NCBI RefSeq assembly: GCF_055900595.2
Contig: NZ_CM148325.1
DNA length: 64,000 nt
Direction: 5' to 3' (one strand)
Shown here: positions 2,039 through 53,286 of the stretch, one piece after another
Layout: every line of letters starts with the position of its first letter
Numbering within the stretch: position 1 is the stretch's first letter
The notes under the pieces: generated by a model
Database searches by the model: none
What the model saw: only the letters and a program-made list of their open reading frames with translations
Told to the model about the DNA's origin: nothing
Translations under genes and position numbers: made by a program

Positions 2039-2734
2039 TTACTGCCCGTAATAGGCATTGGCCCCATGCTTACGCAGGTAGTGCTTATCCAGCAGTTCGT
2101 TTTGCATGGCAGGGAGCTGTGGTGCAAGCTGGCGCGAGAACAGGCCCATATAGGCGCACTCTTCCAGCACTACGGCATTATGCACGGCATCGGCGGCGTT
2201 TTTTCCCCAGGCGAACGGGCCGTGAGAATGCACCAGTACCGCCGGGATTTGTGCCGGGTTCAACCCACGCTCTTCGAAGGTTTTAATGATCACTTCGCCG
2301 GTCTGGTATTCATACTCGCCGTTGATCTCCTCTACGGTCATCTGTCGCGTGCAGGGGATGGCACCATAGAAATAATCGGCGTGCGTGGTGCCCCAGGCGG
2401 GGAGATCCAGCCCGGCCTGTGACCAGATGGTGGCGTGGCGCGAGTGGGTATGCACAATACCGCCAATTTCTGCATAGCGACGATAAAGCGCCAGATGCGT
2501 TGGCGTATCGGACGAGGGCTTTTTGCTACCTTCCACCACCTTGCCGCTGGCTATCTCAACCACCACCATATCGTCGGCGGTCATCACGTCGTACTCGACG
2601 CCGGAAGGTTTGATTACCATCCATTGCCGCGTCTCGTCTACCGCACTGACATTGCCCCAGGTAAACGTCACCAGATGGTGAGCGGGAAGCGCCAGATTTG
2701 CCGCCAGTACGTCGGCTTTCAGTTGTTCTAACAT
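2039..2734 (-). CDS. sgbE: L-ribulose-5-phosphate 4-epimerase (class II aldolase fold)
   Basis: 231-aa [36 protein letters not shown]...; recognised as SgbE; last gene of the yiaK-S operon. Confidence 0.9.
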
Positions 2735-8018: not shown

Positions 8019-8492
8019 TTAAGCTCCTTGCGGTGGCGGCGTTAGAGAATTGCTACGCGTGATGAGTTGATATAAAAGGCGCAGCTCAAAGAATGCGATA
8101 ACGAGGCTGGTGGGTAGACAAGCGGCATACATCAGGCCGATGGGCAAGCCGAGGATCGGTGAATAATCGCTCCAGTCCTGAATTGTTTTTAGCGTTGCGC
8201 CCCAGGCCAGTGCGCCACAAATAAATAATATTAAGGAGTGGGTAACCAGAGCGACTCGTCGCTGCCACGCGGGGGAGAGTTTCTCCACCAGAAAGGTAAC
8301 CTGAACGTGGGCGTTATCCATAAAAGCCACAATCGCGCCAATAAAGGTTAACCAGACAAATAAATAACGCGACAATTCATCTACAGATAAAATACTTGTC
8401 TGAAAACCATATCTTAAAATAATGTTTATAAACACAATACAGGAAAGTACGGCGAGATTAATCGCCAGTATTGCTTCAAGTATTTTTTTCAT
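8019..8492 (-). CDS. yiaM: TRAP transporter small permease subunit
   Basis: 157-aa hydrophobic ORF; DctQ-like; immediately upstream of yiaN. Confidence 0.9.
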
Positions 8493-8609
8493 AGCTATTC
8501 CTTGAGGCTATGTTTGTCATAATTCAAGTTGCATGTGCAGCAACCTGAATTATTAATATAGTTAGAGCAATAACATTACCCAGGCGTTCTGGCGTAGACG
8601 ATTATTCGA

Positions 8610-9080
<471 letters not shown>

Positions 9081-10287: not shown

Positions 10288-11136
10288 ATGGGGAAAGAAG
10301 TGATGGGAAAAAAAGAGAACGAGATGGCGCAGGAAAAAGAGCGTCCAGCCGGAAGCCAGAGTCTGTTTCGCGGGTTGATGCTGATTGAGATTTTGAGCAA
10401 CTATCCAAACGGTTGTCCGTTGGCGCATCTTTCGGAGCTGGCTGGTTTAAATAAGAGTACCGTCCATCGCTTATTGCAGGGATTACAATCCTGCGGCTAT
10501 GTGACCACCGCGCCCGCCGCAGGGAGTTACCGCCTGACTACCAAATTTATTGCCGTCGGGCAGAAGGCGCTGTCTTCGCTGAATATCATTCATATCGCCG
10601 CTCCGCATCTTGAGGCACTGAACATCGCCACTGGTGAAACCATTAACTTCTCCAGCCGCGAAGACGATCACGCTATTTTGATTTATAAGCTGGAACCCAC
10701 GACCGGGATGCTGCGAACCCGAGCTTATATAGGCCAGCATATGCCGCTCTACTGTTCCGCAATGGGCAAGATCTACATGGCGTTTGGTCACCCGGACTAC
10801 GTGAAGTCATACTGGGAAAGCCATCAGCATGAGATCCAGCCGTTAACCCGCAATACCATTACCGAGCTGCCCGCGATGTTCGACGAACTGGCGCACATTC
10901 GTGAAAGCGGAGCGGCGATGGACAGAGAAGAAAACGAACTCGGCGTCTCCTGTATTGCTGTTCCGGTGTTTGATATTCATGGGCGGGTGCCGTACGCCGT
11001 GTCGATTTCTCTTTCGACATCACGTCTGAAACAGGTGGGGGAGAAAAATCTCCTGAAACCACTGCGTGAAACCGCGCAGGCTATTTCTAATGAACTGGGA
11101 TTTACTGTCAGGGACGACCAGGGCGCGATCACATAA
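10288..11136 (+). CDS. yiaJ: IclR-family transcriptional repressor of the yiaK-S operon
   Basis: 282-aa ORF with IclR-type HTH (...LSELAGLNKSTVHRLLQGLQSCGYV...). Confidence 0.9.
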   Translation: MGKEVMGKKENEMAQEKERPAGSQSLFRGLMLIEILSNYPNGCPLAHLSELAGLNKSTVHRLLQGLQSCGYVTTAPAAGSYRLTTKFIAVGQKALSSLNIIHIAAPHLEALNIATGETINFSSREDDHAILIYKLEPTTGMLRTRAYIGQHMPLYCSAMGKIYMAFGHPDYVKSYWESHQHEIQPLTRNTITELPAMFDELAHIRESGAAMDREENELGVSCIAVPVFDIHGRVPYAVSISLSTSRLKQVGEKNLLKPLRETAQAISNELGFTVRDDQGAIT

Positions 11137-50684: not shown

Positions 50685-51039
50685 AAAGTCCTGTCCAGAA
50701 AGAAGTCGGCCTCGCAAAAATGAATAAACCCAGTTTCTCTTGCGCAACAGGTGGAGAAGTCGAATACGCAGTATGTAAAAAATGAGGCAATAGATTCACT
50801 GGGGAGGTCGCGAGGAGGCGCAATTCTACAAAATTGCGCATTTCACTACCAGTCTGGAGTCAGCCCGGATATGAACTGCAACTATTGCAAATAAAGAAAT
50901 TAAGCTGGAAGGTATCACGCAATGAGGAAGGTTGCCGGGTGCTGACGGTAAAAAGCAATCGTAAAATCAGCGGCAAGCCGGAAAGGTTCCGGTGAGGCGC
51001 AATGTTGCGGGGGCTTAATCCCTGGTGGCATTGGTTGCT

Positions 51040-51112
51040 GGAGAGAGAAAACCCCCGCACGTTGCAGATATTCACCTGACAACATCACGGGGGCTAATCT
51101 TGAACCTAGACC
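51040..51112 (-). ncRNA. rdlD: putative Rdl antisense RNA, copy 1 (approximate ends)
   Basis: Minus-strand GC stem (CCCCCG...CGGGGG) followed by UUUUCUCUCU, opposite the ldr leader; inferred from LDR locus organisation. Confidence 0.35.
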
Positions 51113-51159
51113 ACTCAAGAATAGCCGCGAAACGTTGTCATTACAACACAGGCGGCTAT

Positions 51160-51267
51160 ATGACGCTCGCAGAACTGGGCATGGCCTTCTGGCATGATTT
51201 AGCGGCTCCGGTCATCGCTGGCATTCTTGCCAGCATGATCGTGAACTGGCTGAATAAGCGGAAGTAA
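51160..51267 (+). CDS. ldrD: Ldr-family type I toxin, copy 1 (35 aa)
   Basis: MTLAELGMAFWHDLAAPVIAGILASMIVNWLNKRK; closest to K-12 LdrD as recalled. Confidence 0.85.
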   Translation: MTLAELGMAFWHDLAAPVIAGILASMIVNWLNKRK

Positions 51268-51522
51268 CGTGTCAGACGGGCGTCAGGCTGCCGTAATGGC
51301 AATTTGCGCCCGGACCAGGCCGCAGGGATAAAACTCTGCGGCCTTTTTCGTAAGAAAAATGCAACGGTTGCAAGCGGATAATATTCTGCGGAATGCGCAG
51401 CACAGAGTGAAGAAGTGACGGATTCCGGAACAGAAAAACAGTCGTAGAATCAGCGGCAAGCCGGAAGGGTTCCGGTGAGGCGCAATGTTGCGGGGGCTTT
51501 ATCCCTGGTGGCATTGGGTGCT

Positions 51523-51595
51523 GGAGAGAGAAAACCCCCGCACGTTGCAGGTATGCACCTGACAACACCACGGGGGCCATTCTTGCATCCAAACA
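51523..51595 (-). ncRNA. putative Rdl antisense RNA, copy 2 (approximate)
   Basis: Same element one repeat unit downstream. Confidence 0.35.
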
Positions 51596-51642
51596 ATACA
51601 AGAATAGCCGCGAAACGTTGTCATTACAACACAGGCGGCTAT

Positions 51643-51750
51643 ATGACGCTCGCAGAACTGGGCATGGCCTTCTGGCATGATTTAGCGGCTCCGGTCATTG
51701 CTGGCATTCTTGCCAGTCTGATCGTGAACTGGCTGAATAAGCGGAAGTAA
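51643..51750 (+). CDS. Ldr-family type I toxin, copy 2
   Basis: MTLAELGMAFWHDLAAPVIAGILASLIVNWLNKRK (M26L relative to copy 1). Confidence 0.85.
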   Translation: MTLAELGMAFWHDLAAPVIAGILASLIVNWLNKRK

Positions 51751-52006
51751 CGTGTCAGACGGGCGTCAGGCTGCCGTAATGGCAATTTGCGCCCGGACCA
51801 GGCTGCAGGGATAAAACTCTGCGGCCTTTTTCGTAAGAAAAATGCAACGGTTGCAAGCGGATAATATTCTGCGGAATGCGCAGCACAGAGTGAAGAAGTG
51901 ATGGATTTCGACGAGCAAAAATGGCCGTAGAATCAGCGGCAAGCCGGAAGGGTTCCGGTGAGGCGCAATGTTGCGGGGGGCTTTATCCCTGGTGGCATTG
52001 GTTGCT

Positions 52007-52079
52007 GGAGAGAGAAAACCCCCGCACGTTGCAGGTATGCACCTGGCAACACCACGGGGGCCATTCTTGCATCTAGACC
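52007..52079 (-). ncRNA. putative Rdl antisense RNA, copy 3 (approximate)
   Basis: Same element. Confidence 0.35.
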
Positions 52080-52126
52080 ATTCAAGAATAGCCGTGAAAC
52101 GTTGTCATTACAACAGAGGCGGCTAT

Positions 52127-52234
52127 ATGACGCTCGCAGAACTGGGCATGGCCTTCTGGCATGATTTAGCGGCTCCGGTCATCGCTGGCATTCTTGCCAG
52201 TCTGATCGTGAACTGGCTGAACAAGCGGAAGTAA
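52127..52234 (+). CDS. Ldr-family type I toxin, copy 3
   Basis: Identical peptide to copy 2. Confidence 0.85.
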   Translation: MTLAELGMAFWHDLAAPVIAGILASLIVNWLNKRK

Positions 52235-52489
52235 CGTGTCAGACGGGCGTCAGGCTGCCGTAATGGCAATTTGCGCCCGGATCAGGCCGCAGGGATAAAA
52301 CTCTGCGGCCTTTTTCGTAAGAAAAATGCAACGGTTGCAAGCGGATAATATTCTGCGGAATGCGCAGCACAGAGTGAAGAAGTGACGGATTCCGGAACAG
52401 AAAAACAGTCGTAGAATCAGCGGCAAGCCGGAAGGGTTCCGGTGAGGCGCAATGTTGCGGGGGCTTTATCCCTGGTGGCATTGGTTGCT

Positions 52490-52562
52490 GGAGAGAGAAA
52501 ACCCCCGCATATTGCAGGTATGCACCTGACAACATCACGGGGGCCATTCTTGAACCTACACA
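52490..52562 (-). ncRNA. putative Rdl antisense RNA, copy 4 (approximate)
   Basis: Same element. Confidence 0.35.
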
Positions 52563-52609
52563 ACTCAAGAGTAGCCGCGAAACGTTGTCATTACAACACT
52601 GGCGGCTAT

Positions 52610-52717
52610 ATGACGCTCGCAGAGCTGGGCATGGCCTTCTGGCACGATTTAGCGGCTCCGGTCATTGCTGGCATTCTTGCCAGTCTGATCGTGAACTGGC
52701 TGAACAAGCGGAAGTAA
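52610..52717 (+). CDS. Ldr-family type I toxin, copy 4
   Basis: Identical peptide to copy 2. Confidence 0.85.
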   Translation: MTLAELGMAFWHDLAAPVIAGILASLIVNWLNKRK

Positions 52718-52972
52718 CGTGTCGGACGAGCGTCAGGCTGCCGTAATGGCAATTTGCGCCCGGACCAGGCCGCAGGGATAAAACTCTGCGGCCTTTTTCG
52801 TAAGAAAAATGCAACGGTTGCAAGCGGATAATATTCTGCGGAATGCGCAGCACAGAGTGAAGAAGTGACGGATTCCGGAACAGAAAAACAGTCGTAGAAT
52901 CAGCGGCAAGCCGGAAGGGTTCCGGTGAGGCGCAATGTTGCGGGGGCTTAATCCCTGGTGGCATTGGTTGCT

Positions 52973-53045
52973 GGAGAGAGAAAACCCCCGCACGTTGCAG
53001 GTATGCACCTGACAACATCACGGGGGCTAATCTTGAACCCAAACA
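52973..53045 (-). ncRNA. putative Rdl antisense RNA, copy 5 (approximate)
   Basis: Same element. Confidence 0.35.
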
Positions 53046-53092
53046 ACTCAAGAATAGCCGCGAAACGTTGTCACTACAACAGAGGCGGCTAT

Positions 53093-53200
53093 ATGACGCT
53101 CGCAGAACTGGGCATGTCCTTCTGGCATGATTTAGCGGCTCCGGTCATTGCTGGCATTCTTGCCAGTCTGATCGTGAACTCGCTGAATAAGCGGAAGTAA
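53093..53200 (+). CDS. Ldr-family type I toxin, copy 5 (variant A9S, W30S)
   Basis: MTLAELGMSFWHDLAAPVIAGILASLIVNSLNKRK; loss of the C-terminal-region Trp may affect activity. Confidence 0.7.
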   Translation: MTLAELGMSFWHDLAAPVIAGILASLIVNSLNKRK

Positions 53201-53286
53201 CGTGTCATGCGGGCGTCAGGCTGCCGTAATGGCAATTTGCGCCCGGATCAGGCCGCAGGGGTGAAACTCTGCGGCCTTTTTCGTTC

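Follow-up and report, generated by a model that had tools for sequence, protein, structure and literature searches.

The yiaL–yiaM locus

The yiaK–S operon lies on the minus strand of the window (the whole 64-kb stretch of DNA that was analysed, numbered from its first letter). Within the operon, a spacer of exactly 117 bp separates the end of yiaL at 8610 from the start of yiaM at 8492. E. coli records match the window here, the best with 99.7% identity over a 301-nt query and most with 95–99%, and the matching records annotate yiaL and yiaM at the positions that these genes occupy in the window. In K-12 the gap is identical in size; it spans 3,744,211–3,744,327 of MG1655, and the MG1655 reference annotates no feature within it. 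Published operon data indicate that the spacer is probably co-transcribed with its neighbours. The features of the spacer and of the related loci discussed below are collected in Table 1.

Two further features of the window were recorded. The IclR-family regulator gene yiaJ, for which the current MG1655 reference annotation uses the name plaR, is divergent from the operon. At a distance from it, a tandem array consists of 4.8 copies of a 483-bp unit at 94% identity and carries five genes for the rdlD antitoxin RNA (Rfam RF01813, 80–90 bits, minus strand). This array represents LDR (ldr/rdl type I toxin–antitoxin) repeats amplified to five tandem copies; at about this position K-12 presumably has a single LDR-D.

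Table 1 Positions of the genes, spacer features and related copies. Positions are those of the window unless a locus label beginning with L is given.
Feature	Position	Strand	Basis
yiaM, TRAP transporter small permease, gene downstream of the spacer	8019..8492	−	ORF list; E. coli annotation
yiaL (DUF386/YhcH family), gene upstream of the spacer	8610..9077	−	ORF list; annotation in E. coli matches
yiaL–yiaM spacer, probably transcribed, 117 bp, Escherichia-specific	8493..8609	−	ORF ends; locus comparison
5′ spacer part, single-copy, with a small predicted hairpin (8596..8577)	8565..8609	−	BLAST; fold
Probable mini-ERIC (internally deleted ERIC/IRU element), ~56 nt; outer boundaries approximate, termini degenerate	8564..8509	−	Alignment to full-length ERIC; paralogues
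Hairpin 5′ arm, AUAAUUCAGGUUGC, assigned to the left ERIC terminal inverted repeat	8553..8540	−	Fold; ERIC alignment
Hairpin loop, UGCACAU, 7 nt, across the deletion junction	8539..8533	−	Fold; ERIC alignment
Hairpin 3′ arm, GCAACUUGAAUUAU, assigned to the right ERIC terminal inverted repeat	8532..8519	−	Fold; ERIC alignment
Weak predicted 6-bp stem, CAUAGC (8512..8507) with GCUAUG (8495..8490)	8490..8512	−	Predicted fold
Short ERIC copy, speFL–speF leader	L071 2501..2549	Co-oriented with flanking genes	BLAST
Short ERIC copy, yehK–yehL gap	L072/L073 ~2501..2547	Co-oriented with flanking genes	BLAST
Short ERIC copy, just downstream of yafP	L074/L084	Co-oriented with flanking genes	BLAST
waaO–rfaJ element	L083 1501..1638		
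DUF4862 gene between yiaL and yiaM	L076 1430..2362; L077 1495..2436; L082 1492..2418; L005 1481..2422		
IS1 at the yiaL 3′ end, E. coli EC19	L003 3063..3771		
yiaJ (plaR), IclR-family regulator	10288..11136	+	
LDR tandem array	50951..53284		

A stable stem-loop in the spacer

A preliminary description of this DNA had placed an inverted repeat in the yiaL–yiaM gap, on the coding strand and inside the polycistronic operon, and the repeat is indeed there. It had been given as a stem of approximately 10 bp with a TGCACA loop; these dimensions have to be revised, as the stem is 14 bp long and the loop has 7 nt instead of 6. The 14 pairs are contiguous and include one G·U; the stem is AU-rich, with G–C pairs at 4 of the 14 positions. 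The stem starts 56 nt 3′ of the yiaL stop codon and ends 26 nt 5′ of the yiaM AUG.

Folding energies were compared with those of shuffled controls, and no control folded as well as the native sequence. The 43-nt hairpin segment yielded −17.8 kcal/mol versus −5.4 ± 1.9 kcal/mol in dinucleotide shuffles (z = −6.6, 0/200 as good), and the entire 117-nt gap yielded −31.3 kcal/mol (z = −3.4, again 0/200). The expected count of the palindrome pattern in shuffles of the window was 0.00. When larger contexts were folded with a partition function, the pairing probability of the stem was at least 0.89 everywhere and mostly ~1.0. Together, these results confirm the existence of the hairpin and its very high stability, and the folds predict a stem that is formed essentially always in the mRNA. 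As its start lies too far from the yiaL stop codon, a terminating ribosome would not be expected to melt it.

Two further candidates within the spacer were discarded. A long-range helix between gap nt 36–44 and the Shine–Dalgarno region, present in the 117-nt fold, was lost in larger contexts and is disrupted by substitutions in two of the compared loci (L004 and L086). A small ORF of 14 codons, which begins with an AUG at 8520 and runs over the yiaM start, has no Shine–Dalgarno sequence and abuts the stem.

The stem-loop as a probable ERIC derivative

ERIC (enterobacterial repetitive intergenic consensus), also known as IRU or RU-1, is a non-autonomous, MITE-like element that forms a 127-bp imperfect palindrome, and both ERIC and deleted ERIC forms have been known since the 1990s. 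Reportedly, the family was described by Sharples & Lloyd in 1990, Hulton et al. in 1991 and Wilson & Sharp in 2006. We aligned the spacer to a full-length E. coli ERIC from the rpiA–argP spacer, using 2,000 shuffles as the control. The alignment score was 52, compared with 19 ± 3.6 and a maximum of 37 in the shuffles. In the left arm, window positions 8554..8542 correspond to ERIC 10–22 with 11 of 13 nucleotides identical; in the right arm, 8541..8516 correspond to ERIC 95–120 with 24 of 26 identical. Both arms together thus match at 35/39 positions, and the ERIC core of ~72 nt (23–94) is missing from between them. BLAST within the window recovered a 23-nt match with 95.7% identity to ERIC 98–120 (E = 2e-5) and found no other ERIC-related sequence in the 64 kb. 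A text search also located the shared 16-mer GTCATACTTCAAGTTG in the 127-nt Salmonella RU-1 (ERIC/IRU) sequence as printed in Delihas 2007, the reverse complement of which starts with TATACTCTAAATAATTCGAGTTGCAG and ends with GCAGCACATGCAACTTGAAGTATGACGAGTATA.

The junction of the apparent deletion, GTTGC(U/A)G–CACAUG (break at the dash), sits in a GCAG motif that is found on either side of the ERIC core. This short repeat flanks the core as GAGTTGCAG on one side and as GCAG CACATG on the other, and the terminal inverted repeats are left adjacent. The ends of the element, TA–ACTATAT... and ...ACATA–GCC, are degenerate; all of the Escherichia loci examined carry the element.

On this sequence comparison, the hairpin very probably represents the paired terminal inverted repeats of a core-deleted ERIC, or mini-ERIC. 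The identification is based on ~40 nt of termini, and the element would best be described as an internally deleted ERIC derivative, not as a canonical full-length member. As a copy of a dispersed repeat, the hairpin would therefore be a mobile-element relic and not a structure shaped for the yiaK–S operon.

Related copies in E. coli genomes

To find paralogues, a sensitive BLAST search with the 117-nt gap was run against 5,426 complete E. coli genomes. Besides the orthologous site, it returned matches at 81–90% identity to the hairpin with its immediate flanks (gap nt 56–104), in at most four places per genome, and no paralogues of the spacer's 5′ portion. When a short paralogue was used to search instead, the number of related places rose to a median of 8 per genome (maximum 15), and some matches came in two pieces spanning ~138 bp, as expected of full-length elements. 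The yiaL–yiaM junction itself was unmatched in ~1,550 of the 5,426 genomes.

Three other short copies, at speF, yehK and yafP (Table 1), carry no annotation. The speF copy lies inside a leader with known ornithine-sensing regulation. Full-length copies at rpiA–argP and waaO–rfaJ have both termini in common with the yiaL–yiaM element. The waaO–rfaJ element combines canonical ERIC termini with an interior that is unrelated to the ERIC core, and could be a variant that arose by replacement of the core or by insertion. In what is a small sample, orientation is uniform: the four short copies and the full-length waaO–rfaJ copy all run in the direction of their flanking genes.

The speF, yehK and yafP copies have an identical deletion junction, from which that of the yiaL–yiaM copy differs at two positions, and the short copies at speF, yehK and yiaL–yiaM have their terminal TATA extended by GC(C). 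The common junction and the extension suggest that the short copies may form a propagated short subfamily, as opposed to four independent deletions. The paralogues fold in a similar manner, and their stems are broken by A·G and C·A mismatches; the stem of the yiaL–yiaM copy, with its uninterrupted pairs, is more perfect.

Distribution of the spacer

We next compared the yiaL–yiaM junction across genera. The 117-bp spacer with the mini-ERIC was found at all Escherichia loci examined, which comprise diverse E. coli, a divergent GTDB representative (L004) and contigs whose YiaM is named by NCBI as that of E. albertii or E. fergusonii. In Pasteurellaceae there is no spacer, the yiaL stop and the yiaM start lying within a few nucleotides of each other. 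In Salmonella, Klebsiella, Citrobacter and Pseudocitrobacter, a DUF4862 gene of ~310 codons stands between yiaL and yiaM, and the short gaps around it are unrelated to the Escherichia spacer. The Salmonella, Klebsiella and Citrobacter loci were obtained by exact-protein look-up; a peptide-pattern genome scan recovered few Enterobacteriaceae.

By parsimony, Escherichia would have lost the DUF4862 gene. The idea of a deletion scar, with the 3′ coding end of this gene surviving as the first portion of the spacer, was abandoned, the local alignment being no better than shuffles (241–358 of 1,000 were as good). The DUF4862 protein (~310 aa), conserved in Salmonella, Klebsiella, Citrobacter and Pseudocitrobacter and missing in Escherichia and Pasteurellaceae, may have a role in the 2,3-diketo-L-gulonate/L-ascorbate pathway. 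A different arrangement occurs in some E. coli strains, such as EC19, in which IS1 has inserted at the yiaL 3′ end and the operon from yiaM onward has given way to other genes, for a transporter of the MFS type and a glycoside hydrolase of family GH127.

Possible role of the element in the operon

The identity, distribution and structure of the element allow us to propose what it does in the yiaK–S operon. We suggest that a core-deleted ERIC sits in a spacer found only in Escherichia, at the place taken by the DUF4862 gene in related genera. Transcribed within the yiaK–S polycistronic mRNA, the spacer would give this RNA a constitutively folded 14-bp stem-loop. The element would be a passenger fixed by descent and not a regulatory construction, and any effect that it has would be a by-product. 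One such effect could be protection of the upstream yiaKL segment, with the hairpin blocking 3′→5′ exonucleases; another could be a modest shift in the relative stability of the two mRNA segments, comparable to that described for ERIC in Yersinia. Taken as a whole (core-deleted ERIC, by-product effect, no terminator), this explanation is one that we hold with high confidence. The element is most likely a passenger relic in the first place, and its main biochemical consequence is most probably a passive 3′-exonuclease barrier or a mild shift in segment stability; a function as a switch is unlikely. The preliminary description had offered the hairpin as an mRNA stabiliser or processing site, and such a role is plausible by analogy, since the ERIC family is reported to alter segment stability in Yersinia.

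The alternative that fares best goes one step further, in that the mini-ERIC would have been domesticated. As a stabiliser or a site of processing, the hairpin would then allow the yiaKL enzyme segment and the yiaMNO transporter segment to have uncoupled levels, and the element might tune yiaM translation through a stem at the AUG. The orientation-dependent effects of ERIC on upstream versus downstream transcripts in Yersinia, as presented in a review (PMC2229807), speak in favour of this, as do the co-orientation of the four short copies and the waaO–rfaJ copy with their flanking genes and a stem more perfect than those of the paralogues. So does the strand bias of the K-12 hairpin, which folds to −17.5 kcal/mol on the sense strand versus −10.7 kcal/mol on the antisense strand, because both departures from symmetry are G·U on the sense strand.

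Strain variation points both ways. Among 10 alleles, six substitutions fall in the stem; four preserve pairing (C–G to U·G, G–C to G·U, U–A to U·G and G·U to A–U) and two break pairs. Natural variants break the DNA symmetry yet keep the RNA pairing. However, no compensatory double changes occur in the stem among the 10 alleles, a sample underpowered at six substitutions. Pairing is kept in four of five stem transitions, which is not distinguishable from the ~50% expected by chance; as about half of stem transitions keep pairing by chance, the bias towards pair-preserving substitutions is not significant. Together, the perfect stem, the sense bias and the pair-preserving changes hint that the RNA may be under some selection, which would speak against a strictly neutral passenger.

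A second structure could link the element to yiaM. The predicted 6-bp stem at the yiaM start pairs CAUAGC, which is the 3′ tip of the mini-ERIC plus GC, with GCUAUG, which includes the yiaM AUG, and places the Shine–Dalgarno sequence AAGGA (8503..8499) in an 11-nt loop. Its pairing probability is ~0.98 in a context of 150 nt upstream and 40 nt downstream. The AUG is mostly paired in four of five other context sizes, and it is ~0.7 paired in the shortest (117 nt upstream, 30 nt downstream). The stem is weak and a prediction only; its sequence, unchanged across the 10 alleles, would fit a tuned yiaM start. Against domestication stand, besides the chance-level pairing and the pair-breaking substitutions, the occurrence of the same operon without the element in Salmonella, Klebsiella and Pasteurellaceae, and the dependence on context of the long-range helix in the 117-nt fold, which is disrupted in L004 and L086. 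We regard domestication as unlikely. Its strongest form is less probable still: that a truncated ERIC, at the site of the DUF4862 gene of sister genera, was recruited in Escherichia to serve inside the operon as an RNA module, in which an unusually perfect, sense-biased hairpin sets the yiaKL:yiaMNO ratio and the 3′ tip, by pairing with the yiaM start codon, gates translation of the transporter.

The passenger mini-ERIC was also weighed against two readings in which the hairpin controls transcription. The first is a partial attenuator, as raised in the preliminary description, or a partial intrinsic terminator, either of which would reduce read-through from yiaL into yiaM; in its favour, the stem-loop is stable and lies in a gap within the operon. 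This suggestion does not hold up. Downstream of the stem comes AUGACAAACAUAGCC, which lacks a U-run, and a terminator scan of the minus strand returned no site in the gap; the stem is also AU-rich, with few G–C pairs. According to Gao et al. 2018 (PMC6237786), deletion of yiaJ up-regulates the entire yiaK–sgbE operon, which is thus co-regulated as one unit; this means that the hairpin is no strong terminator. A consensus scan of the minus strand of 8493..8609 for a sigma-70 promoter of yiaMNO (−35/−10, 16–18 nt spacing) found none, and an Rfam scan at permissive E-values gave chance-level matches only (E ≥ 3.5), all outside the gap.

The second reading takes the inverted repeat as a DNA operator for a dimeric transcription factor such as YiaJ/PlaR, or for another DNA-binding protein, and its arms of 12–14 bp with a 7-bp spacer do have typical operator geometry. 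Arms of identical type nevertheless recur at unrelated loci, as ERIC termini, and the count of the half-site in the window, including the yiaJ–yiaK control region, is not above chance. The main text of Gao et al. 2018 (PMC6237786) describes YiaJ ChIP-exo peaks only between yiaJ and yiaK and hence gives no sign of the hairpin as a YiaJ operator; the review cited above (PMC2229807) gives no DNA motif for ERIC, and natural variants lose the DNA symmetry while retaining the RNA pairing. The hairpin is neither a terminator nor an operator, and we consider both readings extremely improbable.

The importance of the mini-ERIC lies mainly in annotation, as the E. coli yiaL–yiaM spacer, including that of MG1655, contains an unannotated hairpin that is probably ERIC-derived. 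RNA structure, RNA ends and palindromes at yiaL–yiaM, in the speF leader, at yehK–yehL and in the yafP 3′ region should accordingly be treated as repeat-derived. No new mechanism is indicated by the yiaL–yiaM element. If it does alter segmental mRNA stability, it would be an E. coli counterpart to what has until now been documented for the ERIC elements of Yersinia.

Comparison with known repeat elements

In the open-access literature we found no paper linking ERIC with yiaL or yiaM; the kind of element, by contrast, is familiar. REP/BIME hairpins act as 3′-exonuclease barriers inside operons, for example in malE–malF. The yiaL–yiaM stem-loop resembles them in being stable, repeat-derived and located in an intra-operon spacer, and by analogy it could protect upstream mRNA. 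The sequences are unrelated, however, REP being GC-rich and the yiaL–yiaM element AU-rich. A second parallel is offered by the Correia/NEMIS elements of Neisseria, MITEs whose hairpins are described as being cleaved by RNase III in the review cited above (PMC2229807). In both cases the paired terminal inverted repeats of a MITE would form an RNA hairpin that is co-transcribed with the flanking genes. Family and host differ, and the 14-bp contiguous stem at yiaL–yiaM is short for an RNase III substrate.

The closest counterpart is ERIC itself. ERIC elements are described as intergenic, co-transcribed with flanking genes, hairpin-forming and able to affect mRNA stability, and in Yersinia as shifting the stability of the upstream relative to the downstream transcript in a manner that depends on orientation (PMC2229807). 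The yiaL–yiaM element is ~90% identical to both ERIC termini (10–22 and 95–120), and its terminal inverted repeats fold as an RNA hairpin (−17.8 kcal/mol). It occupies an intergenic site within a transcription unit, has multiple dispersed copies in E. coli, is AT-rich and has TA-rich ends. It differs from the canonical element in lacking the ~72-nt core, and with it the primer sites ERIC1R and ERIC2, and in its length of ~56 nt with degenerate outer termini. With the core lost at a junction of short GCAG repeats and the terminal inverted repeats brought next to each other, it is most like the internally deleted forms of ERIC. The yiaL–yiaM hairpin is an element of an already known kind and an ordinary feature.
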